This document shows positions 246-53,324 of a stretch of 64,000 nt of DNA, piece after piece. Source of the DNA: a virus; the IMG/VR virus record IMGVR_UViG_3300008117_007749; one strand, given 5' to 3'. The stretch's first letter is position 1. The number at the start of each line of letters is the position of its first letter. The notes under the pieces were generated by a model that worked only from the letters and a program-made list of their open reading frames with translations, was not told where the DNA came from and did not search any database. Made by a program: the position numbers and the translations under genes.

Positions 246-3200
246 TTAAGAGTTGATGAAACCACCAGCACTGATAGCACCTGTTCTAAGAATCGTAATG
301 TTATTAACAATAACACCCATTCCTTTGATTGGTTCAACATAAGTATCAAGAACACCGATTTGATTATCAATGATTTCTGGAGTGTTATTTTCATCATCCA
401 TTTTATTGAAATAGTTATATAAACCATTTTTACCAACATATGTTTCACAAATAACGTCAGCTCTTAACTTAATTTCAGCTCTGATATCTGGTGTATTAAA
501 TTTCCACTGGAAGTCCAATAACATTCTCGATAACTCTCTCTCAAGTTCAATCAATACCTCTCTTACGTGAATGTAAGAAAGAGCTGACTTATAAAGAGTC
601 TGAGCCGTATTTTCAGTCTCAATTACAAAACCTCTATTTCTTTTGAATACCAAAGGATTCATTTGAGCTATGTTAAGGTTTTCAATATCACTTGGAGTTA
701 AATCTTGTTCCAAACTATTGATGTTTGTAATTCTACCATTAGTAACACCCGCAGCTATCGTCCAAGGAGTAACATTTCCTACATTAGAGATATGTTTTCT
801 CATATATGTAGTTGCTACGAATGGAGCTGGTGGATGATCTAAAGGTCTTCCATTATCATTTATATTTACATAAGGGAAGAAGTATCCTACACAAGTTGTT
901 CCTCCTCCTTCACCAAATGAGTAAAGGAATGCTGGATTACTCTCAGGATCACCTCCTGAAGCAATAAACGCAGTTTGTAAAACTCCTTCATTATTAACAA
1001 AAGAAGGCGAAGATGAATTTTTGAAAGATCTAGCAGACGGCATGTTAATGAAACCGAATGAGTCTAATCTATCTCCACAAATATCCATCAATTGTTGCTT
1101 ACTTCTTTCAGTAAGACCCAATCCAAATGAGTCAATTAAATATCTAAAGTCAATTGCTTCTTTATTAGTTGTTGCTTTAAATAAAGGTGTTCCTTTAGCA
1201 ACTAAGTTTAAGATAGCATTTTGCTTAGATTCTGTACCATCAGGAAGTGAAGCATTTCTGATTCTAAATCCTTTAAGAGAGATTGCCTTATATGTAGTAG
1301 CATATTGATCGATTGTTACAAATCTTGTAGTTTGTAAGTCACCACCAAAGTTTCTTATAGCAATTCTTGAGTCACAAGTAACCTCAACAAGTGATGGATC
1401 TCCACTATATTGTCTTTTAGAAAGAACTCTAGTTATTTTTCTTGGATATTCACCAACTTGTAAAAGTGATGTATCATAGAAAGCCTCTAAGAAATCACCA
1501 ACTTTAATTTCTGTATATCTAGCACCATCAATTAAAATCTTATTAGGTGTTTGAACATAACCAGATGGAACCTCAAGTTCAATAGTCTGAGTAAAGTTTG
1601 ACTTATCAGATTGAACATAGAAAGTATTATTTGCTTCAGGATCAACATCAATATCACTATCAAGTAAAGAGTCTTTAAACTCAACCGAAAGTACTCCATT
1701 TCCATCTAAGAACATTCTTAAATAATGTCTTCCTAAATAGTCATAAATAAGACTAACATCAAATAGTTCTTCATATTCAACTTCTTCATTAACTTGATAA
1801 GCGAAGAAGTTAGAAGCTGTATAACCAAGAGCCGCTGCTAACTGAGCTGGAGTTTGACCAGCATTTACAGAGTTTGATACTATTGTAAATGATCCTTTAT
1901 TTTTAGAAGCTGAAGGGAACATTAGTTGTTCAAAAGTTGCTAAGTTAGTCTCAGTTTCAAAGCTAGGAGCATTGAAGATAATATAATCATAACCAGCGTA
2001 TGAAGACGTAGGTGATCCAAGAGGAGCAGATTCTCCATCCACAAATACCACATCAACTGTTCCACCTGTAGAAGCATACGCGTTAGCAAATCCACCATCC
2101 ATAGCCGAAGCATCAAGATATAGTCTGTTAGCGTAGAAGAAGTCTTTTGTATTGATTTGACCATCAAAATATCTTTGATAGAATTTAGAGTATTTTGCAA
2201 CAACTCCCAATTCATTTAAGCTTGTTCCAGCAACTTCATCCTTAGTGATTACGCCATCAAATCCAAGTAAGAATTCGTTATCTTCAGTATAAAGAATAAA
2301 CATACCACCTAATACATTAGAAAGTTCGGCTTGTGAAAGACCAGTTGTTAAAATAAACGACTTATTTTGAGTTGTTGAATTAACAATATTTGAAATAGTC
2401 ACATTCGACATACTATATTTCACATCAGTATCAGTTGGTCCAAGTAAAAGAGTCATTTTATCTTTTCCTGGGCTATCAATAATATTTGTTAATCTGTTAA
2501 ATAGTTTAAATCTTCTGTATTGATCGTAGTTAGATGGACTAGCGATTGCCGCTGTATCATTAAATGTAATTTTAATTTTACCAGTAGTTGGGTCTTCTAA
2601 TGAGATATAATAGTCGTCACCAGATTGAGTACCAAATTGATAATCAATAAATCCTTGTGTTCCAACATTAACATTTATAAAGTTAGATACAAGTGAACCT
2701 AAATTGACAAATTGATTAGCATTTACATCAACATCAATATATCCTAATACGATATCTGTTGTAGCGACACTTGGATTAACACCTTCTGTCAAGCTATTAA
2801 TAACTGAGATTTCACCAGTATTATCAATAACAAATACTGAACGGTATGTCGCAGTAGTTGTAGAGTAAGGATAATCAGAAGCACTTATATTAAGTGTAAC
2901 TGAACCAGATGATGTTCCTTGAACAGGAATATAAGTCTCTCCAATAACAACATAAGAATCAGATATCAAATCATAATCAACACTAATAGATTGAGTTGAA
3001 GATGTGATAGGAGAAGTCGGTCTTGTAACACCATACACCGAATATTCAGCAAACCAAGCAGTTCTCTCATCAGCATTTACCACAACACCCGAAGGCTTAA
3101 CACCACCAGAAACGTTTCCACCAAATGCATGAGGATCTTGATTAATATATCCATATCCGGACCAAGTACCACCCAACATAGCAGTTACGTTACCAGGTAA

Positions 3201-40664: not shown

Positions 40665-40716
40665 AGAGTATATATTAAAAAAGAAACTTTTATTTTATTG
40701 ACAATATAATTTATTG

Positions 40717-42552
40717 ATGAAACAGAGACTTTTAATAATTTCTTCTCACTTTTCAACAGGAGGAGCTCCACAATTCACTCTAAATAAAATACAAATTTTA
40801 AAAGACACCTATGATATTTGGTGTATAGAATATGATTTTTTATCATCAGATTTTGTTGTTCAAAGAAATGCTGTTATCGAAATACTTGGCGATAACTTTA
40901 TTCCACTTTATGAAAATAAAGAAAAAATAATTTCAATTATTGATGAATTATCACCAGAATTAATTTTAATTGAAGAGATATCCGAAACATTCATTAAAGA
41001 AGAGATACTTAAAAAGATTTATTGCAGTGAAAGAAATTGGAAAATAATAGAGACAACTCATAGTTCTCATAACAATTCCGGACTTAAAAGATATCTTCCA
41101 GATAAATTTACATTTGTATCTCAGTGGTCATTAGAAATGTACAAACATTTAGGAGTGGATTCGACGGTCATCGAATATCCAATTGATAAAAAAAGTCGAA
41201 ACAAATATAAATCTCAAGTCGAATTAGGACTTGACCCTAATAAAATACACGTCTTAAATGTTGGGTTATTTACTTCCGGAAAAAATCAAGGATACGCATT
41301 TGAAATTGCTAAACATTTTTTAGACAAAAATTACGAATTTCATTTTGTAGGTAACTTAGCGGGTAATTTTCAAGATTATTGGGGTCCAGTAATTGAAAAT
41401 AAACCAGATAATTGTAGAATTTGGGGAGAAAGATCAGATGTCAAAAACTTTATTGAAGCATGTGATGTGTTTCTTTTTACTTCACGATTTGAATTAAATC
41501 CACTCGTCATAAAAGAAACTCTCTGTTATGATATACCGATACTAATGTTCAACTTACAGACATATTGTGGAATCTATAATAATGAACAAAATTGCCATTT
41601 CTTGAAAGGGGATACTAATAAAGACTCAAAATTATTAGAAAATATAATAAAGGAAAATTCTAAACATAAATTTGGATATGTTCTTTATTCAAATGAAAAA
41701 TACTTTGAAATATCGAAATTATGTGCTGAATCAATAAGAAAATCAAGTAATCACCCAATTTATGTCTATCTGATGAATTCAGATAGAGTTTTAGATATAG
41801 AAAACTGCCATACAATAAATTGGATATGTGATTTAGAAGTGGATTCCGAAATGTATAACACTATTGGTGATAACTTTTACATAAATAGAGGAAACTCTAA
41901 CATTTATAAAATGTTAATACAAAGACCAAAAGTAGTCAAAGATGTTTTAGAAAAATATGTAGAAACAGTCGCATATGTAGATAGCGATTCAATTGCTACT
42001 AAATATGTTGATAACATCTTTTCAATGTATCCTAAATATTTAGAATATCCATACTTTGTAGAAGGAGTATATGACTATCTTTTTTACAACGGGAGAGGAG
42101 GAGCTGAAACTAAAGAAGACTTAACAAATACACTAGAGCATCCAGTTTGTGAATTGTATGATATAGATCAGAAAATTAGAGAAAGATATAGACAAACAGG
42201 TTATTTTATCGCTGGTAAAAATACTTTAGATTTTTTACAAGAGTGGTCCGATATGTGTGAAAATCCAATAATATTAGAAAATAACGAATGGTTTGCTCCT
42301 TATAACGAAGAAACTATTTTAAATTGTCTTTTATATAAAAAGAAAATATTAGACGGATTACCTTGTATTTATGTAAATGGAACTTTAGATACGATTGATA
42401 GAGTATATTCAGAAATTGGTTTTTCTGACAAAGATGTAATAGTAGATTCATGGTTACGAATTCCATCAAAAAAAGAAAACTTACTATTCATACACGGCGA
42501 AAAAAACTTACCAATACTAAATAAAATGATAAAAAAATTAGAAGAAATATGA
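40717..42552 (+). CDS. Bifunctional glycosyltransferase (GT-B/GT4-like N-terminal, GT-A/DxD C-terminal)
   Basis: STGGAPQ, NVGLFTSGKNQ, DVFLFTSRFELNPLVIKE; second half YVDSDSI and NEETILN. Confidence 0.8.
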   Translation: MKQRLLIISSHFSTGGAPQFTLNKIQILKDTYDIWCIEYDFLSSDFVVQRNAVIEILGDNFIPLYENKEKIISIIDELSPELILIEEISETFIKEEILKKIYCSERNWKIIETTHSSHNNSGLKRYLPDKFTFVSQWSLEMYKHLGVDSTVIEYPIDKKSRNKYKSQVELGLDPNKIHVLNVGLFTSGKNQGYAFEIAKHFLDKNYEFHFVGNLAGNFQDYWGPVIENKPDNCRIWGERSDVKNFIEACDVFLFTSRFELNPLVIKETLCYDIPILMFNLQTYCGIYNNEQNCHFLKGDTNKDSKLLENIIKENSKHKFGYVLYSNEKYFEISKLCAESIRKSSNHPIYVYLMNSDRVLDIENCHTINWICDLEVDSEMYNTIGDNFYINRGNSNIYKMLIQRPKVVKDVLEKYVETVAYVDSDSIATKYVDNIFSMYPKYLEYPYFVEGVYDYLFYNGRGGAETKEDLTNTLEHPVCELYDIDQKIRERYRQTGYFIAGKNTLDFLQEWSDMCENPIILENNEWFAPYNEETILNCLLYKKKILDGLPCIYVNGTLDTIDRVYSEIGFSDKDVIVDSWLRIPSKKENLLFIHGEKNLPILNKMIKKLEEI

Positions 42553-44351
42553 ATTCAAAAGAAACTAAACAAAGATATATTGATGAGTTTAACTCAACTG
42601 AGTTAATAAAAAAACAAACAATTGAAGACAACGTTTCATTTAATCTACACTTTGTTCAAAAGGCATTCTTTGAAGTTGTTGGTAATTCAAAGAAAAAGTA
42701 TCCAGTCTTTTTCTTTGATGGAGAAAATAATTTAGTTTATAAAACTGATTTAAGTTCAGGAATGTGGGCATCTCCAAGTAAAACCTATTTTGAGAAATGG
42801 AGAATTGTCGTTGATGACTCAGGTAAGTTAATAGAATTTAATTATGACTGCACAGGAAAAAGAGTCTATATAAGCATGGATTCATCTTCATTAGGAGACA
42901 CTATCGCTTGGATGCCTTATATTGATGAATTTAGAAAAAAATGGAATTGTCATGTAATCACATCAACATTTTGGAATAAATTATTTAGGAATTCTTATCC
43001 TGAAATAGAGTTTATAGATCCAGGAGTTGTAGTTCATAACCTTTATGCTATGTATGTTTTAGGATGGTTCTGGAATAAAGACAAAGAGCCGGAAGAACCA
43101 AATACAATACCTTTACAAAAAGCGGCCTCTAATATATTAGGATTAGAATTTAAAGAAATTAAACCTGAAATTGACTTCGTGCCTGGTCAAAATCCATATA
43201 AAGAAAAATATGTAGTTATTGCACCACACTCAACATCTGGTCTTAAATACTGGAATAATCTAACTGGATGGCAAGAAGTTATAAACTATCTAAACGGATC
43301 TGGATACAAAGTCGTAAATATATCAAAAGATTCGGTAGAATACTACGGAGTTGAAAATTTATTAGATACTAGCATAGAATATACAATGAATGTGATTCAC
43401 CACAGTGAGTTTATGATTGGTTTATCGAGTGGACTTTCATGGTTGTCATGGGCATTAGGAAAACATGTTGTCATGATTTCTAATTTTACAACATCAGACC
43501 ACGAATTTCAATCAAACTGTAGTAGAATTATTGATAGAAGTGTTTGTTCTGGATGTTGGAATAAAAGTGAGTTTAGATTTGATAAAGGCGACTGGAATTG
43601 GTGTCCTGTCCATAAAGGAACCGACAGACAATTTGAATGTCACAAAAAGATTACCGGTCAAATGGTAATCAATAGAATCAAAAGTATTGATAAATTAAAT
43701 AACTTCGAATGGGGATGGATGAAAGATAATTTGAATCAAAAAGAAATACTTATCAAAGAAATATTTGAAGACAAAATTTATGAAAGATTTTTTCAAATTG
43801 AAAAAGGTGATGTTGTTATGGATATTGGAAGTTCAGTAGGTCCATTTCCTTACTCAGCTGGTGAAAAAATTAAACACGTGTATTGTTTAGAACCAAGCGA
43901 TGTGGAATTTGATACTTTATTGGAAAATATGAAAGATATTTCATCCACCTGTTTGAAGCTGGGAATATCCGATGAAACAGGAATAACCGATGGTGATTAT
44001 ATTTACGGAGGACAACAAAAAATGGAATGTATTTCATTCAGTGACCTGATTGAAAAATATAATATTAATAAAATTGACTTCTTAAAAACGGACTGCGAAG
44101 GTGGTGAATATGACATCTTTAATTCAAAAAATATTGAATGGATTAAAAGTAATGTGAGTAAGATTTCTGGAGAATGGCACTTGGGAAATAATTTAAAGGA
44201 AAAATTTAGAAAGTTTAGAGATGAAATATTAGTTCAATTTCCAAACTACGAGGTTTATTCTTTAGATGGATACAATGTAAAATGGGACTTATTCAATGAT
44301 CACTTTTTAGAATACTTTACAGAAGTAATTATACACATAAAAAATTATTAA
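42549..44351 (+). CDS. TibC/Aah-like (autotransporter O-heptosyltransferase family) glycosyltransferase fused to an FkbM methyltransferase
   Basis: SSLGDTIAWMPY, FMIGLSSGLSWLSWALGKHVVMISNFT, four-Cys motif CSGCWN...WCPVHKGTDRQFEC; C-terminal MDIGSSVG...IDFLKTDCEGGEY. Confidence 0.8.
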   Translation: MNSKETKQRYIDEFNSTELIKKQTIEDNVSFNLHFVQKAFFEVVGNSKKKYPVFFFDGENNLVYKTDLSSGMWASPSKTYFEKWRIVVDDSGKLIEFNYDCTGKRVYISMDSSSLGDTIAWMPYIDEFRKKWNCHVITSTFWNKLFRNSYPEIEFIDPGVVVHNLYAMYVLGWFWNKDKEPEEPNTIPLQKAASNILGLEFKEIKPEIDFVPGQNPYKEKYVVIAPHSTSGLKYWNNLTGWQEVINYLNGSGYKVVNISKDSVEYYGVENLLDTSIEYTMNVIHHSEFMIGLSSGLSWLSWALGKHVVMISNFTTSDHEFQSNCSRIIDRSVCSGCWNKSEFRFDKGDWNWCPVHKGTDRQFECHKKITGQMVINRIKSIDKLNNFEWGWMKDNLNQKEILIKEIFEDKIYERFFQIEKGDVVMDIGSSVGPFPYSAGEKIKHVYCLEPSDVEFDTLLENMKDISSTCLKLGISDETGITDGDYIYGGQQKMECISFSDLIEKYNINKIDFLKTDCEGGEYDIFNSKNIEWIKSNVSKISGEWHLGNNLKEKFRKFRDEILVQFPNYEVYSLDGYNVKWDLFNDHFLEYFTEVIIHIKNY

Positions 44352-44356
44352 TAAAA

Positions 44357-44728
44357 ATGGAAATAGAAGTTTCAATTGGTGAAATAGTTGATAAACTATC
44401 AATATTAGATATAAAAATGAAAAATATCACAAATAATGAAAAATTGAAAAATATTGAAAAAGAATTTATTTATCTGAATAATATAGTTTTTAATCAATTA
44501 AAAATCGAAGAAATTGACTATCAAAAATTAGTTTCTATAAATAAAAAACTTTGGATAATAGAAGATGATATCAGAGATAAGGAAAGAAATAAAGAATTTG
44601 ACGAAAATTTTATAGAACTCGCAAGATTAGTTTATTTCACAAATGATCAAAGAGCTGAAATTAAAAAAGAAATTAATATAAAATATGGATCTTTATTTGT
44701 AGAAGAGAAGTCTTATCAAAAATATTAA
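44357..44728 (+). CDS. DUF6165-like protein
   Basis: EVSIGEIVDKLSILDIK, LWIIEDDIR, FIELARLVYFTNDQRAEIKKEIN, EEKSY. Confidence 0.75.
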   Translation: MEIEVSIGEIVDKLSILDIKMKNITNNEKLKNIEKEFIYLNNIVFNQLKIEEIDYQKLVSINKKLWIIEDDIRDKERNKEFDENFIELARLVYFTNDQRAEIKKEINIKYGSLFVEEKSYQKY

Positions 44729-45369
44729 CGAGGAGGAGCTGGTACAGTAAAGTTACCTGTGGTCAAATTACTTATCTTTATCCACTCACACCTTAACCTA
44801 TCATTAGAGTTTTCCACACCCCCAGCAGCAATAATAAAACCACCGTTAAGAGCTATTTGATTATAGTGTGTCCAATCTATAGATCCGAGAGACTCTTGTG
44901 TTCCAATAATTTGATACTGATCATCAACAGTACCTGAAACTCTGTCTCTAAAAAATAAATCAGTACCTCTACTAAAAGTAGAAGAATTAAAAGTATTGTA
45001 TGGATCAAAAGATCTCGTAGAATTAGTTAAACTAACAATTTGAACTCTTCTAAATATATTACTATATGTAAATGAAGCAGGAGCATAATCACCGTCATAA
45101 GTAGGATTTAATGTACCATGGCAAATTAAACGAGCATTTGTTAGTGTAGCTGATGTATTCCAATATAGTTCAGTGAAATATTTACCACTACTACCCTGTT
45201 TTGAAAAACATGCTTCTATTTGCACAATATCTCCTACACCGAAGTTATTTGGTGGAACTTCAATTGACTTTATCAATGCAGGACCAGAAGCTGTTATGCC
45301 AGTAACCGCCGCGCAATTGCTAATTACATTCCAAGCTTTTCCTAAACTATATGTATTCGTTTCCGCCAT
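44725..45369 (-). CDS. Putative fibre-associated beta-sandwich protein (paralogue 1)
   Basis: Shares (V/I)PxxxxxxxDV, YWNxxxxL and (I/V)(D/N)W patterns with the two upstream genes. Confidence 0.6.
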   Translation of the reverse strand: MAETNTYSLGKAWNVISNCAAVTGITASGPALIKSIEVPPNNFGVGDIVQIEACFSKQGSSGKYFTELYWNTSATLTNARLICHGTLNPTYDGDYAPASFTYSNIFRRVQIVSLTNSTRSFDPYNTFNSSTFSRGTDLFFRDRVSGTVDDQYQIIGTQESLGSIDWTHYNQIALNGGFIIAAGGVENSNDRLRCEWIKISNLTTGNFTVPAPPR

Positions 45370-45376
45370 AATTTTA

Positions 45377-45883
45377 TTATTTTATTATTCCAAAATATCT
45401 TTTTGTCATTGTATCCACTCTATCAGTCGCTAGTATTAAATAACCATCTGTGTTCCAATTTATAGTTGTTATTGTAGTCATATCAATGTTGGTCTCTTCA
45501 CCACCAGTATCACCCAAATCAGTTGCAGTTGTTTGACTAGTACTCCAAACTAAAGTTGTGGTGGAATCCACTATTGCCATTGTTCTATATATCGGACAAT
45601 AGTCATCATTCACACTATTTGTAAGAGATCGAGCCAATAAAATAGGAGTTGTTAAATCATTAGTTTCATTCCAATATACATAACAAGAATACTGAGAATC
45701 ACTTGTTGATGCCCTCTGAACCACTCCTTGTATATTAATAACATCATTTGATTTCAAAGTACCAGCTGGTATAAAAAATGACTCTATAAGAGCTATTTGT
45801 CCATCAGTTGTTGAATCAGTTACAGTAACACCATCAACAAATCCAACAGCACCAGCTACCTCAAAAGTATTAATTTTACCCAT
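45377..45883 (-). CDS. Putative fibre-associated protein (paralogue 2)
   Basis: IPAGTLKSNDVINI, YWNETNDLT, INWNTDGYLIL. Confidence 0.6.
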   Translation of the reverse strand: MGKINTFEVAGAVGFVDGVTVTDSTTDGQIALIESFFIPAGTLKSNDVINIQGVVQRASTSDSQYSCYVYWNETNDLTTPILLARSLTNSVNDDYCPIYRTMAIVDSTTTLVWSTSQTTATDLGDTGGEETNIDMTTITTINWNTDGYLILATDRVDTMTKRYFGIIK

Positions 45884-45884
45884 T

Positions 45885-46451
45885 TTAATTATTTATTTTA
45901 AAATATCTAACCTGTAAAACATCAGAAGCATTATCAACATCTCCACTTACAAGAATCCAAACATCATTTTGCCAATTAACAGATACCAAATCAATACCAC
46001 CTGGTGATTCACCATTCCTACCATTTAATTCACTGCCTCCAAAAGCTAAATCAGTTGTTGCACTTCTAGTGGTATCAAAAGCTATTGTACTGTTAGTTGC
46101 TGATCTTATACCCAATCTTCTATGAAGAGGAAGAGACCGAGAAGTTGAAGTATATAAACACTGAGCTAACTGAGTCGCTCCTGATAAAGAAGCAGTGGTA
46201 CCATACCAAAATCTAAGAGTGCAAGTATTATTAGTAGCGGATTTTGTACCTAAAGTTCTAATATCCAATACCTCATTTGCTATATAAGTTCCTGCCGGAA
46301 CAAGAGTACTATAAAGTAAAACATCAGTCAATGAGCTTGTTGTTATTCCAGTAACTGTGCTACTTATAACTTTTCTAACATCTGGATCACCAGCATCAGC
46401 CGTAATATCAACTGGGCCTAATGGAAGTGTATATGTATTGTATCTACTCAT
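45885..46451 (-). CDS. Putative fibre-associated protein (paralogue 3)
   Basis: VPAGTYIANEVLDI, VNWQNDVWILV; late promoter 4 nt upstream. Confidence 0.6.
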   Translation of the reverse strand: MSRYNTYTLPLGPVDITADAGDPDVRKVISSTVTGITTSSLTDVLLYSTLVPAGTYIANEVLDIRTLGTKSATNNTCTLRFWYGTTASLSGATQLAQCLYTSTSRSLPLHRRLGIRSATNSTIAFDTTRSATTDLAFGGSELNGRNGESPGGIDLVSVNWQNDVWILVSGDVDNASDVLQVRYFKINN

Positions 46452-46469
46452 ACTCTATATATAAATAAT

Positions 46470-49400
46470 TTATATTTCTATCCAAGTATTATCAGGACAG
46501 AAAAATATTACAGTTCTACTAATAGCAAATCCAACAATTCTAATTACATCATTTGCAGCAGTCGGAGCTGTGTTTGAAAGAGCTCCAGCCGTAGAATTTA
46601 GATAGACAGCAGAAGCCGTAGCAAAGGTCCAAGAGTCGTTTCTAACATATCCTCTTAGTAACATACCAGACGCTACCGTATTACCCAAAGCTATAGCTAA
46701 CATACCAGTCGAAGTTGCAACTCCGTTAGAATCACTTAGAGACCAAGCACTACCAGAAGTAAAATAATAACAACTAAATGTAACACCACCTCCTGAACCA
46801 AACGTGACCACGTCTCCGTAACCACCTGAAGTAGATAATTCAGTAGTTGGATTATGTGTAAAGTCATAAGAACCGATAACATTCAAGTCTCCACTAACAT
46901 TTAGCAAAGAACCATCAAAAGTTAAATTAGATTCAACAGTAGCATTCGATCCACTTCCATCATAAGTTATGACACCATTCGTGGTGGCTCCTGTGAGACT
47001 TAAGGTTCCATTTGCCCCAGAAGAACCGGATGTACCAGATGTTCCTCTGGTCCCAGAAGAACCGGATGTACCAGATGTTCCGTTAGCACCATTTGCACCA
47101 GAAGAGCCGGATGTACCAGATGTTCCGTTAGCACCATTTGCACCAGAAGAGCCGGATGTACCAGATGTTCCGTTAGCACCATTTGCACCAGAAGATCCGG
47201 ATGTACCAGATGTTCCGTTAGCACCATTTGCACCAGAAGATCCGGATGTACCAGATGTTCCGTTAGCACCATTTGCACCAGAAGAGCCGGATGTACCAGA
47301 TGTTCCGTTAGCACCGGAAGTTCCACTAGTTCCTCTTGTACCGGATGTACCACTTGTTCCTGTAGTTCCGCTTGTTCCAGATGTTCCATTAGCACCGGAA
47401 GTTCCACTAGTTCCTCTTGTACCGGATGTACCACTTGTTCCTGTAGTTCCGCTTGTTCCAGATGTTCCATCACCTTTATCACCAGTTCTATAGAAAGTTA
47501 TAGAACATTGTTCAGTGTCAGTAGGAGTACTTCCGGATAAGTAAGTAACTGATAGAATATTCCAACCTAAATTATCAGTAAGAGCAGTAAGTTGGAAATT
47601 ACAAATAGTGGTATCTGAATTGGAGTTTGATTTTATTTCAATTACTCCCTTCACATTACTAGTGCTATTATCCCATGAAGTTATATAACTTGCAAAACTT
47701 ACCGAATTAACATCCAAATCGTCAATGTAAATCTCAGTAGTACCACTAGCAGCGGCATTATTAAATTTAAACAAACCTGTTCCTGGATCAGAAGAAGCTG
47801 TGCTAATAGCATCAAAGTTATATCTTATACCAGCTGACTCACCTTGTTGTCCTGATGTACCTGATGTACCTGATGTACCACGAGTTCCTGATGTACCACT
47901 TGTTCCAGAAGTCGCGGATGTACCACTTGTTCCAGAAGTCGCGGATGTACCAGATGTACCGGACGTACCATTAGCCCCGGATGTACCAGAAGTAGCAGAC
48001 GTACCAGACGTTCCTGATGTGCCGTTTTGACCAGATGATCCTGATGTTCCAGAAGTAGCGGATGTACCACTTGTTCCAGATGTACCATTGACTCCGGATG
48101 TACCAGAAGTAGCAGACGTACCAGATGTACCGGAAGTACCATTAACTCCGGACGTACCAGAAGTAGCAGAAGTACCGGATGTACCAGATGTACCGTTTTG
48201 ACCAGACGAACCACTTGTTCCAGATGTCGCGGATGTACCACTTGTTCCAGATGTCGCGGATGTACCACTTGTTCCGGAAGTCGCGGATGTACCACTTGTT
48301 CCAGATGTCGCGGATGTACCACTTGTTCCAGATGTACCCGCTACACTAACAGAAGAAGTCCAGGATGCTAATCCATTAGCATCGGAAACTAAAAGGTAAC
48401 CGGATGCGGCTCCGTTTGAAATTTGAATCTGAGAAGTTGTAAGTCCAGAAAGTCTTAGATTAGAATAATTTACTATACCTATATTACCAATAACCGTATG
48501 ATCATCATTTGTTCCTATTAAAGCAAAGGTATCATCTGACTCATCCCAGATAAATGCCTGTGTTAGACCAGTACCTCTAACAAACATAATACCTTCGTCT
48601 AAAACCGGTGATCCAGATTGACTATGACCTAAAGCAATTATTGTATCAGATACCACTAATGAACTAGTGTTTATTGAAGAAAATGAACCAGAAACAGAAA
48701 ATGTTCCATTTACAAATAGGTTTCCTTGTATATTTAATGTAGAACCGTCAAATGTTAAATTTGTTTCAGCTACTGCAGAATTTGAAGAACCATCCGAAGT
48801 AAGTATTCTATTATTTGACGGGTTACTAATTGTAGTAAATCCTGCACCACTTGTTCCTGAAGTACCTGAGGACCCATTCAATCCGGATGTTCCAGATGTA
48901 GCAGACGAACCAGATGTACCGGATGTTGCGGATGTACCAGATGTACCGGATGTACCACTAGTCCCCGAAACCCCAGTACCACCAGATGTACCACTTGAAC
49001 CATTATTACCAGAAGTTCCAGAAGTTCCAGATGTACCATTCAATCCAGATGTACCACTCGTAGCGGATGTTCCAGAAGTACCACTACTACCAGTATTACC
49101 AGAGGTACCACTTGTAGCAGAAGTTCCGGATGTTCCGGATGTTCCTGATGACCCGTTATTTCCAGATGAACCGGATGTACCAGATGTACCAGATGTACCA
49201 CTAGATCCATTTTGACCTGATGTACCAGATGTTGCGGATGTGCCACTAGTTCCAGAAGTAGCAGATGTACCGGAGGTAGCAGATGTACCGGAAGTACCGG
49301 ATGTACCACTTGTACCAGTATCACCAGATGTTCCCGAAGTAGCAGATGTTCCAGACGTACCGGAAGTACCGGAAGTACCGGATGTGCCAGTACTTCCAGA

Positions 49401-49754
49401 AGTACCTGCAGTACCAGAAGTTCCAGCAGTTATAGTATCAACAGAAATTAACCAATTGGAACCATTACTTTGAACAGTGATTGATTGATTCTGTGTTAAA
49501 TTTTTTGTAGAACTACCATCTATGGTCTGAGAGGAAGTTGTATCAACAGTTATTGTACCAGAACCACTGTTTTTAACAACATATATTTTTCCGGCCACAC
49601 CAACAGCTGTTGGTAAAGTAACATTAAAGGTTCCTGAACAATCTACAAAGTAATCACTATCTAAGATAGTATAAGTTGTATTGTTAGAAACATATGGGAA
49701 AGTTACACCTCCCAGTGATATTATTCCTCTACGGGTTATAAATTCATTAGCCAT
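46470..49754 (-). CDS. Fibre protein with three (Gly-Thr-Ser)n tracts
   Basis: 1094 aa; GTS/ATS triplet blocks separated by globular modules; late promoter upstream. Confidence 0.8.
47005..47470 (-). repeat. GTS / [12 protein letters not shown] coding repeat block
   Basis: 9-nt periodicity with 45-nt higher-order units. Confidence 0.9.
47850..48340 (-). repeat. GTS/ATS coding repeat block
   Basis: 9-nt and 27-nt periodicity. Confidence 0.9.
48847..49430 (-). repeat. GTS/ATS coding repeat block
   Basis: 9-nt periodicity. Confidence 0.9.
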
Positions 49755-49833
49755 TTAAATAGTTCTTTTTTCACTTTCCAAAAGAAGTCAAAGTATATAT
49801 TAAAAACTTTAACTCAAAAATTAAAAAATAAAT

Positions 49834-50637
49834 TTAAATAGCTCTAATTAATGTTTTAACTCCCCAAGTTGATGTTGAAGATAAAGCTTGCAGAACAGCA
49901 TAAGTACCAGATATAACAAAAGAAAAAGTAAATCCAGTCGTTGTTCCTAAATCCACTGTTGAAACATCAGTGTAAGTTATAGAGTTACCTTGCCAAACAG
50001 CCGTCAAACTACCAGCTCTTAAATTTGATCCACTACTAACATTATAGTCAATATGTGCACTTGTATAAGAAGCTGTCGCAAACGAATATATCGAAACAGT
50101 ATTTGAGACAGTAGCTGTTGTAAGTTTAGATGTATATAAAGCCTGTACTCCTGATTCACCAATTAAAGCTGAATTATTAATTGAAAGTGATAAACCATCA
50201 AATGTCATATTTGACTCAACAATAGCATTCGGAACCGAACCATTAAGTGTAATGATACCATTATTGGTTGTTCCTGTAAGCGAAAGAAGACCAGATGTCC
50301 CACTAGTTCCAGAAGTACCGGACGTGCCATCAGTTCCAGAAGTACCGGACGTGCCATCAGTTCCAGAGGTCCCGGACGTGCCATCAGTTCCAGAGGTTCC
50401 GGACGTGCCATCAGTTCCGGAAGTACCAGATGTGCCGTCAGTTCCAGAAGTACCGGACGTACCATCAGTTCCAGAGGTTCCGGACGTACCATCAGTTCCA
50501 GAAGTACCGGACGTGCCATCAGTTCCAGAAGTACCGGATGTTCCCGATACCCCATCAAGACCATTTAATAAAATCCAATCATTAAGTGAAGATGGAACAT
50601 TATTATTATTATTTGCAGTGGATTGATAAGAAAACAA
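49834..50637 (-). CDS. C-terminal portion of a GTS fibre protein, out of frame with 50565-53324
   Basis: TTG start with no promoter; continues the GTSGTD repeats of the upstream ORF. Confidence 0.6.
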
Positions 50638-50820
50638 ACCATCAATACAGTTCCAGAAGTACCAGAAGTACCGGACGTACCATCAGTTCCAGAAGTACCG
50701 GACGTGCCATCAGTTCCAGAAGTACCAGAAGTACCGGACGTGCCATCAGTTCCAGAAGTACCAGAAGTACCAGATGTGCCGTCAGTTCCGGAAGTACCAG
50801 ATGTACCGTCAGTTCCATTA
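50292..50820 (-). repeat. GTSGTSGTD 27-nt coding repeats on both sides of the frame break
   Basis: Visible at about 50292-50550 and 50650-50820. Confidence 0.85.
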
Positions 50821-53324
50821 TTTCCTGTCGATCCAGTAGGACCAACAAGAGAACTAACTTCCCATCTACTATTTAAATCATTCCATGCTAAAACTTGACC
50901 ATTCGAAGGAGTTCCGGATATATAAACATCATGTATTTCATTCAATTCATAACCATTTTGAGGTTTTACAAATAATTCTCCGTTTCCATTATTTGCTCTC
51001 AAAACAACACCAACAAATACCAAGTGTTGAGGAGCCTGAGCTTTATATGTTGTGAAAGTTCCTGCAGTTGCGCCCAACCAAACAACATCACCAGTGGAAT
51101 AAGAACCTAAATTCAAATTAGTTAAAACTCCTTGTGTAATACAATATCCAATTTGACTTGACAAAATATTCTCAGCCACAATACCTAACGTCTTAGCTGA
51201 TGTAGCATCACTTAGATTGAAAGCTCTTTTGACTTTTATTTTATCACCTTGCGCCCCCGAAATATAAACAACTTCACCTTTTACCAAAGTGTCTACTTCA
51301 CCGTTAAAAACTTGAGCATATTGAGCTTGACCAACAGGAACATTTACATTACCTCCTGTAAGACCTACATTAAGAGTTCCATAGTCACTATTCCAACTTA
51401 TTCTACCCGGTAGTTGCACTACAGCATCTTGTCTAAAATCAATATAATCAACATATCCACCTGAAAAAGTAGCAAATGTTAGATTAGCGTATGTAAAATT
51501 TCCCTGCGATGCAGTAATTCTATTTAATCTTAAATCAGAATATCCTGATATGTTAACATTACCAGTAACAGTTGAAGGATCATTAGTAGATATAAGAGCA
51601 AATTCGTCACTAGACTCATCCCAAATAAAAGACTGTGTTTGACTTGAACCTCTGTTTATAAATAAACCAGAATCCAAAGTAGGTGTTCCTGTTTGTGTTC
51701 CAGCTAAAAGTATAATAGGGTCCTGAACAAATAAGTTTTGAGTATTTATAACAGATGACGTTCCTGATACAGTAAAACTTCCAGTAACAACTAAGTCACC
51801 ATATACAGATAAAGTATCACCATCAAATGTTAAATTAGATTCAACAGTCGCATTTGGAGCAGAACCATTTAAAGTAATAACACCATTATCTGTAGAACCA
51901 GTCAAAGAAAGTAATCCGGATGTTCCGGAAGTACCAGAGGTTCCATCAGTACCGGAAGTACCAGAGGTTCCATCAGTACCGGAAGTACCAGAGGTTCCAT
52001 CAGTACCGGAAGTACCAGAGGTTCCATCAGTACCGGAAGTACCAGAGGTTCCAGTACCGGAAGTACCAGAGGTTCCATCAGTACCAGAGGTTCCAGAAGT
52101 ACCTGAAACACCACTACCAGATGCGCTAATTAAAACGTCAATTCTTGAATTTAAACTAGAATCAGTTACCGTTACAGTTGATCCACTTCCTGATATAAAA
52201 TTTATTACGCTTCTACTACCAACTAAAACACCATTTGATTGAACAGAAATACTCGTATTAGCAACCGGAGTACCAATACCACCAACCAAATACACTTCGT
52301 CCAACAATGCTTCAACATAGTTAGCTGAAGGATTTCCTGAAAATCCTATCAATATATTATTGACATTATTTGAACCACCATTTGACGTTAAAGCATTTAC
52401 CGCGGAACCAAAATAACTTAAAGGCAAAACACATAGTTGCCAAGTTCCTGTAGTTGTTCTAGAAACACCACCATTAGTGAACGGATAAGCATAGGATCCA
52501 ACATTTGTATTTCCATTTCTCCATATCACTCTCATAGTCTTTGTATTAAGAACCGCGGAAGGAAAATAAACTCTAAAGACTAAATAGGAATAATCTTTTA
52601 ATAAAATAGATGAGTTGTTGGTCCACTTAACAGATGTTGTTTTATTCAATATCACTCTTGTTGAATAGGTACCTTGAAAAGGTACAATTCCCGTATATTG
52701 AAAATCGACAGAACTTGTACCTAAAGAAGTACTGAATGTTCCACCAGTCCAATAATCATCGTCTTGATAAATATACTCTGAAGATGTAACACCAGAAACA
52801 GGAACTGTTGAATTTTCAGAGATACTAACATATTGTACTAATAGTTGTTCATCAGGTATTGAAGGAGTAACTGGATCAGGCGTAGCATCTCCTTGTAAAA
52901 CACTAATCAATCCTTCCTCATCAACAACAATCGCGTCAAATCTTGAATAAGTCGGGTCTCCGTCACTAAGAGACACTGAAGTAGGACCAGCTGTTAAAAT
53001 TGGCCCTGTAAAAGTATACTGTAAAGTACTAACTGAAAAAGTTAAACCAACTCCACTCCATATCGCACCTCCTGATAATAACTGTTTCGTAAAGGGAATT
53101 TGAGTTTGTTGCCAAGTTGCATTTCCAAAAGAATCTGATGTTAAAACATAACCAGGTAATTGATTACCGTCAATAAATTGAAGAGAACCATCTACTATTA
53201 GTTTATTAGAACTATGTTCCCAACGTAAATTGTCAAAGTTTTCACTAACAACACTGTTAGTGCCCAGAAAAAGTATAGAACCTTGAGAAGCTCCTCTTAT
53301 TTGTTTAGTTTTTATTTGAGCCAT
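50565..53324 (-). CDS. Fibre protein with GTS/GTD tracts (N-terminal portion)
   Basis: 919 aa; the last ~28 codons ([10 protein letters not shown]...) look out of frame. Confidence 0.75.

Follow-up and report, generated by a model that had tools for sequence, protein, structure and literature searches.

Does a bacteriophage encode the machinery to glycosylate its own fibres? The question is raised by a 64,000-nt stretch of the virus record IMGVR_UViG_3300008117_007749 (the window), in which a cassette of three plus-strand genes (40714-44728) lies near minus-strand open reading frames (ORFs; 46470-53324) that encode tracts of Gly-Thr-Ser (G-T-S) triplets. We conclude that the cassette is probably a phage-encoded O-glycosylation system, its main predicted substrates being the phage's own Ser/Thr-rich collagen-like fibres. 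The window comes from a viral contig of 121.8 kb that CheckV rates as 21% complete, implying a very large genome, and its T4-like portal, tail sheath, large terminase, major head protein and prohead protease mark the phage as a large myovirus. The window has a GC content of about 30%, which reaches about 40% across the repeat genes. Within the cassette, the first two genes overlap by 4 nt and the second and third are separated by 5 nt. The original prediction described a double glycosyltransferase, a TibC/Aah-like transferase fused to an FkbM methyltransferase and a DUF6165-like protein, and hidden Markov model (HMM) scores and structural models bear out this composition. It also placed the cassette stop-to-stop against the fibre genes; the last stop of the cassette (44726-44728) does overlap the stop of a minus-strand gene (44725-45369), but the cassette does not abut the fibres directly, as three small paralogous genes (44725-46451) intervene.

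The central gene (42549-44351, +) encodes a 600-amino-acid (aa) fusion, and the identity of its first part decides what kind of system this might be. Residues 51-380 (approximately 42699-43688) match the TIGR04414 hepto_Aah_TibC model with 281.7 bits (cut-off 200; 282.4 in the genome scan), whereas HMMs for lipopolysaccharide (LPS) heptosyltransferases score about 20 bits, LPS heptosyltransferase I reaching 22. The Protein Data Bank (PDB) sequence of TibC matches residues 51-378 at E 3e-53. A structural model of the domain (predicted local distance difference test score, pLDDT, 80.7) aligns by Foldseek to TibC structures 4rap and 4rb4 with template-modelling (TM) scores of 0.83-0.85 and E of about 1e-28, compared with TM scores of 0.4-0.5 to the LPS heptosyltransferases WaaC and WaaF. 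An LPS-type heptosyltransferase is ruled out by the HMM scores (22 versus 282 bits) and by the fold. The enzyme is a genuine member of the TibC/Aah (BAHT) family, siding in both sequence and structure comparisons with the protein-directed TibC and Aah rather than with the LPS enzymes of GT9, as had been proposed, and it belongs to the one branch of GT9 for which protein glycosylation is known.

Conservation of the active site accords with this assignment. In TibC, Asp-110 is the catalytic base, Thr-226 and Lys-230 are ligands of the beta-phosphate, Trp-305 contacts the sugar, and Cys-339, Cys-342, Cys-358 and Cys-370 form the iron finger (PMC4358343). We mapped these residues by pairwise alignment with PDB TibC and judged invariance over 13 viral homologues. 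Asp-110, Thr-226, Lys-230, Trp-305 and Phe-368 are identical in the window enzyme, and the equivalents of the first four, together with the iron-finger cysteines, are invariant among the homologues. All four TibC cysteines are matched by a predicted Cys4 iron finger (CSGCWN...WCP...FEC). The position of TibC Pro-300 is occupied by Ser, as in Aah. Each motif quoted for the transferase in the original prediction, SLGDTIAW, GLSSGLSWLSWA and CSGCWN...WCPVHKGTDRQFEC, is present in the protein.

The candidate acceptors are three ORFs on the minus strand: one of 1,094 aa (46470-49754; 188 bits to the collagen repeat family PF01391, E 2e-56), one of 267 aa with 31 triplets (49834-50637; 51.9 bits, E 6.5e-14) and one of 919 aa (50565-53324; 53.1 bits, E 2.7e-14), against a cut-off of 27.2. 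The longest also matches PHROG tail-fibre families. A strict-triplet census counted at least 182 Gly-X-Y triplets across the three, 111 of them G-T-S, with 286 Ser/Thr residues, one Pro and no Lys in the tracts. The 1,094-aa ORF has several (G-T-S)n tracts, and its longest strict tract runs to 52 triplets; Ala often takes the place of Gly at the first triplet position in this ORF. Four of the GTS tracts across the cluster are followed by a conserved module. The Ser/Thr-rich tracts were thus correctly recognized at the outset, but the label 'mucin-like' does not fit them: they are Gly-X-Y collagen-like repeats, and this collagen-like nature is the key to their likely biology.

If the cassette acts on such repeats, its enzyme should be found with them elsewhere. 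More than 7,000 close homologues (55-65% identity) of the TibC-like domain occur in metagenomes, often as fusions with GT4, GT2 or FkbM domains. A peptide-pattern scan of IMG/VR returned 225 viral loci with the enzyme, and the identical patterns applied to genomes of 185,579 species returned only three contigs, all metagenome-assembled (MAG); as judged from these scans, the clade to which the phage enzyme belongs is virus-restricted. One MAG contig (L204) has a 272-triplet Gly-X-Y ORF beside the enzyme. For neighbourhood analysis, 80 of the 225 IMG/VR loci were retrieved and collapsed at 90% identity to 38 clusters. An ORF with (G-[ST]-[ST])n repeats, of up to 955 triplets, is present in 53 of the 80 loci, and is downstream of and convergent with the enzyme in all but one of these 53. 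At the non-redundant level, 22 of 38 clusters carry such a gene within 10 kb and eight more carry proteins with (T-P-T-x)n repeats; several of the eight clusters with neither kind have truncated flanks. As a control, 80 loci (1.06 Mb) were taken around large-terminase (TerL) genes from the same phage lineage; these contain no collagen-like and no Thr-Pro repeat gene. Fisher's test gives p = 5e-14 when collagen-like genes are counted alone and p = 5e-21 when genes of either kind are counted.

The linkage holds over long evolutionary distances. The enzyme is present in all five large relatives of the window phage, and where enzyme identity has fallen to 40-47%, five of six places still keep a G-S/T-S gene within 10 kb. 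Five records lacking a collagen-like gene in that interval were checked, and all five carry one farther along the contig, in one example about 46 kb away. In a tree of the viral enzymes, collagen-like neighbours are spread throughout. A nested clade with only Thr-Pro neighbours still has distant collagen-like genes, so the tree gives no clean signal of co-diversification. One large relative (G048; 436 kb, 95% complete) also encodes a second, more divergent TibC-like copy (C1:160218-161354, -, locus L291), which is 32% identical to the window enzyme and has no collagen-like gene within 10 kb.

Searches in the opposite direction, from repeats to enzyme, allowed the composition of the repeats to be considered. 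Among 47 viral records retrieved by a GTS DNA pattern, most of them fragments, 11 contain the enzyme above cut-off. A composition-blind Gly-X-Y pattern retrieved 89 viral records, two of which contain the enzyme; both have repeats with a Ser/Thr fraction of 0.78-0.86 and no Pro. Expressed by composition, the enzyme accompanies two of seven high-Ser/Thr records versus none of 82 others (p = 0.005), and it is never found in this set with the Pro-, Gln-, Lys- and Asp-rich repeats typical of viral collagen-like proteins. Across these records the linkage is specific to hydroxyl-rich repeats and is not obligatory. Chance adjacency is ruled out by the lineage-matched control together with these reverse searches. 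The co-occurrence anticipated by the original prediction proved to be a strong link with Gly-Ser/Thr repeat genes that is seen in both directions and across deep divergence.

The neighbourhoods also show which other proteins might be modified. One clade of the enzyme has as its neighbours large proteins that contain Cys and long (T-P-T-x)n linkers (L043 849-4100, -; L051 4792-6636, -; L082 11281-13677, +; L060 2-5389, -), which are likely a second class of O-glycosylation substrate. The cassette might serve other virion or phage proteins, such as the Thr-Pro-rich linker proteins, the small paralogues, or capsid and tail proteins, with the fibre genes as mere neighbours. This would suit the clade in which a (T-P-T-x)n protein is the closest Ser/Thr-rich neighbour and some 46 kb lie between the cassette and the collagen-like gene; it would also suit the small paralogues, which separate cassette from fibres in the window as well as in two relatives, and the capsid and tail-tube targets described for known phage virion glycosylation (PMC10527164, as cited in PMC12619734). 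We nevertheless consider it fairly improbable: in the enzyme tree no type of neighbour is as widespread as the collagen-like one, just 38-700 nt separate the collagen-like gene from the cassette in many loci without small paralogues, and among the 89 Gly-X-Y records the enzyme accompanies Ser/Thr-rich collagen-like repeats and not other kinds.

The companion domains of the cassette are consistent with a multistep pathway. The first gene (40714-42552, +) encodes a 612-aa protein with an N-terminal GT4 domain of GT-B fold (PF00534, 36.1 bits, cut-off 26.4). Its C-terminal half (approximately 41704-42549) has no sequence match in Pfam or the PDB and so is assigned to no CAZy family. An AlphaFold model of this half (pLDDT 90.8) finds as its best Foldseek matches the GT-A-fold enzymes of GT6 (E about 1e-5, TM about 0.5, probability 1.0), and a D93-S-D95 (DxD) motif is invariant across 17 homologues; the earlier designation of this half as GT-A is in this way upheld. 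Homologous domains of the first protein are found in most related viral loci. The FkbM domain of the central protein (residues approximately 422-547, or 43812-44189) scores 41.2 bits to PF05050 (cut-off 22.7) and 46 bits to TIGR01444 (cut-off 37.7). The third gene (44357-44728, +) encodes a 123-aa protein of the mainly viral DUF6165 family (PF19662, 34.7 bits, cut-off 27). The cassette is conserved as a set of parts: across the 80 loci the GT-A, GT4, TibC-like, FkbM and DUF6165 units turn up repeatedly, fused in differing orders. DUF6165 is 54-72% identical among relatives, above the transferases it accompanies, and in many related loci it lies shortly downstream of a TibC-like or FkbM domain. 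This high conservation and recurrent position suggest that it is a direct partner of the TibC-like enzyme.

Together these features outline how the system might operate. The TibC-like domain, acting in the cytoplasm of the host late in infection, would move a first sugar from a nucleotide sugar onto Ser/Thr hydroxyls of the (G-T-S)n tracts, with the conserved Asp of the SLGDT motif acting as catalytic base. The GT4 and GT-A domains would then extend the glycan, and the fused FkbM domain would O-methylate it, an order of priming, extension and methylation that we infer. DUF6165 would be an obligate partner. A T4-type TATAAATA late-promoter motif is slightly enriched in the window, and none stands in front of the cassette.

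Several observations weigh against this reading. In TibC, Arg-286 contacts adenine N1 and is the basis of ADP-sugar specificity, and the R286A mutant is inactive; the dodecamer is built through the Phe-Val tip of a beta-hairpin thumb, reported as highly conserved and required, and mutating the thumb yields inactive dimers (PMC4358343). Arg-286 aligns without gaps to Thr-279 of the window enzyme, a Thr that is invariant in all 13 viral sequences, and the thumb is gone, with a 9-residue gap falling exactly over TibC 263-271 and no hairpin in the model. Lacking both, the enzyme may differ from TibC in activity, donor and assembly, or may be impaired. Furthermore, the enzyme is absent from 36 of the 47 and five of the seven Ser/Thr-rich collagen-like contigs, most of which are fragments, although at least one is a 98%-complete record of 58 kb. 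The virion-fibre status of the collagen-like ORFs is suggested by PHROG hits driven by the collagen repeat and by the structural-gene neighbourhood. Genetic linkage indicates a functional connection and is not proof of the acceptor, and neighbouring non-collagen proteins could be targets. Glycosylation of virion proteins is here a prediction from genes.

The loss of two features essential for activity on TibA, Arg-286 and the thumb, raises the alternative that the TibC-like domain has given up donor binding and ring assembly and now serves the collagen-like fibres mainly in their assembly or as a chaperone, without catalysis. We regard this as very improbable, given the invariance in the 13 viral homologues of the catalytic Asp, the Thr/Lys ligands, the Trp and the iron-finger cysteines, and given that the domain is fused with other transferases and with a methyltransferase, which argues for an active pathway. 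The viral enzymes are better described as BAHT-like and, with Arg-286 and the thumb lost, they probably differ from TibC in assembly and perhaps in donor.

The sugar genes of these phages bear on the donor. GmhA is found in none of 45 enzyme-bearing viral records, no nucleotidyltransferase (NTP-transferase) exceeds its cut-off in any of them, and the window phage's own contig has neither an NTP-transferase nor an epimerase; a phage-encoded ADP-heptose pathway was accordingly not found. The absence of GmhA and the invariant Thr in place of Arg-286 both favour the original caveat that a donor other than ADP-heptose might be used. Nucleoside-diphosphate (NDP)-sugar epimerases or dehydratases are encoded in 20 of the 45 related records. 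In four records (G079, G068, G081 and G083, the sources of loci L067, L043, L070 and L073), such genes form clusters of 3-8 at about 13-23 kb from the cassette, a distance estimated from contig ranges. With no nucleotidyltransferase found in them, the phages of these four records seem to modify the nucleotide sugars of the host instead of synthesizing their own.

Such sugar-modifying genes, together with GT4, GT-A and FkbM domains that are common in polysaccharide synthesis, could also be expected of a cassette whose product or target is a non-protein glycan, be it host LPS, capsule or some other polysaccharide of the cell surface, for example for superinfection exclusion or receptor masking, with the tail-fibre neighbourhood incidental. 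Phage glycosyltransferases are often interpreted in this way (PMC12801897). That explanation is unlikely here, as the key enzyme falls among the protein-directed transferases and reaches no more than 22 bits against LPS heptosyltransferase I, and as the association follows the Ser/Thr composition of a neighbouring repeat protein. No flippase, polymerase or lipid-carrier gene turned up in the window, although no systematic search was made for them.

If the fibres are indeed the substrate, the composition of their tracts hints at a purpose for glycosylation. Collagen triple helices are stabilized by proline or hydroxyproline and by Lys-Glu/Asp salt bridges; Thr glycosylation is discussed as an alternative stabilizer, and for a (Gly-Pro-Thr)10 peptide galactosylation of Thr is a prerequisite of triple-helix formation (PMC11923368). 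With a single Pro, no Lys and Gly sometimes replaced by Ala, it is doubtful that the unmodified GTS tracts would form stable triple helices. As the tracts lack proline and Lys-Glu/Asp pairs, dense glycosylation may plausibly be required for the fibres to fold or to stay folded, and may also shield them. We advance more tentatively, and with the balance of our judgement somewhat against it, a stronger proposal: that a large, virus-restricted TibC-like clade, re-tooled by loss of the adenine-contacting Arg and the dodecamer thumb and by fusion to enzymes that extend and methylate the glycan, hyper-glycosylates proline-free, charge-free (Gly-Thr-Ser)n helices, so that glycans take the place of hydroxyproline and salt bridges in fibres (of up to about 950 triplets) that could not otherwise fold. 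The donor in that case may be a sugar nucleotide other than ADP-heptose.

The fibre cluster has further features of its own. The 919-aa and 267-aa ORFs share 73 nt (near 50565-50650, -), the final 27 codons of the former being the start of the latter read out of frame, and a one-base shift past the last GTSGT of the 919-aa ORF restores continuous reading into the 267-aa ORF. The two look like one fibre gene of about 1,160 aa, with the 267-aa ORF as its probable 3' part, split by a 1-nt frame change; the change may stem from faulty assembly, from a genuine mutation or from programmed frameshifting. Long ORFs over the GTS tracts in other frames or on the opposite strand (46969-47493, 47000-47482, 47825-48322, 48667-49215 and 50252-50626), whose translations are rich in Pro/Val/Glu/Asp or Leu/His/Val, are by-products of the triplet repeat and not genes. 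PHROG and Pfam yielded no useful domain identity, either for the stretches of the fibres outside the collagen-like repeats or for the ORFs next to them. The three small proteins encoded between cassette and fibres (214, 168 and 188 aa; 44725-46451, -) are virus-specific paralogues with 28-31% pairwise identity (BLASTP E 1e-8 to 9e-10). Their neighbours in the protein atlas are viral hypothetical proteins, and homologues hold the same position in loci L005 and L292.

The pairing also occurs in a cultured phage. Microcystis phage Mel-JY01 (PP395634.1, locus L001) encodes a 1,226-aa protein with GT4 and TibC-like domains, and immediately upstream of this gene lies an open frame of about 1,016 aa with G-[ST]-S collagen-like repeats (L001 2-3049, +). 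The frame begins at the first bases of the record and may continue across the record ends. The GenBank record instead presents this stretch as two opposite-strand hypothetical coding sequences (1-651 and 739-2298) and a short same-strand one (2519-3052), and artefactual ORFs of the triplet repeat probably misled the annotation. Literature searches, including full text, turned up nothing about phage enzymes of the TibC type or about Mel-JY01. As a cultured phage with both the enzyme and a collagen-like gene, Mel-JY01 makes the idea testable at the bench.

Comparison with known systems shows what is shared and what differs. Like the TibC/TibA and Aah/AIDA-I pairs, the phage system has an enzyme of the same family and fold (an N-terminal beta-barrel and a GT-B-like core), with the catalytic Asp, Thr/Lys, Trp and Cys4 (PMC4358343), and sets a cytoplasmic enzyme beside a long repetitive Ser-rich protein presumed to be a multi-site substrate. 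Unlike them, its proposed substrate is a Gly-X-Y collagen-like repeat rather than a beta-helix autotransporter, and its enzyme belongs to a viral clade, is fused to FkbM, is accompanied by two further glycosyltransferase domains, and has Thr for the adenine-contacting Arg and a deleted dodecamer thumb. Neither the TIGR04415 acceptor repeats nor the PF03797 autotransporter domain is matched at E <= 1 in the 121.8-kb contig, which represents about 21% of the genome. A parallel to the proposed substrate is BclA of the Bacillus anthracis exosporium, described as a protein with a Thr-rich collagen-like region that bears many O-linked rhamnose-anthrose oligosaccharides with an O-methylated sugar cap and forms a hair-like surface layer (Daubenspeck 2004, as cited in PMC11923368; PMC6222408). 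BclA differs from the phage fibres in being bacterial, with Pro-containing (GPT) repeats and no virus involved. Its glycosyltransferases are not known to be related to TibC.

Viruses that glycosylate their own particles are also known. Giant viruses of the Mimivirus type encode the glycosylation of their virion fibres and possess collagen-like genes; they differ in their eukaryotic hosts and in their hydroxylysine-linked glucose and complex fibril glycans, and no BAHT-type enzyme is known to take part. In mycobacteriophages, as Freeman et al. (2023, PMC10527164) are cited as reporting, phage-encoded glycosyltransferases decorate the phages' own structural proteins, by means of other enzymes acting on the C termini of capsid and tail-tube proteins in Actinobacteria hosts. 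Phage virion glycosylation is already known, and a TibC-type enzyme together with collagen-like fibres was not found in the literature.

If the proposed system is real, the BAHT family, so far a small number of autotransporter systems tied to virulence, would come to include thousands of phage genes from the environment and would gain a new class of substrate. It would also supply an enzyme-substrate pair for two open questions about collagen-like proteins, namely how Thr-rich helices keep their fold without hydroxyproline and whether glycosylation occurs on unfolded chains or folded helices (PMC11923368). More broadly, the finding suggests that virion glycosylation in phages is far commoner than the mycobacteriophage cases, with a bearing on host recognition, protease resistance and particle stability.

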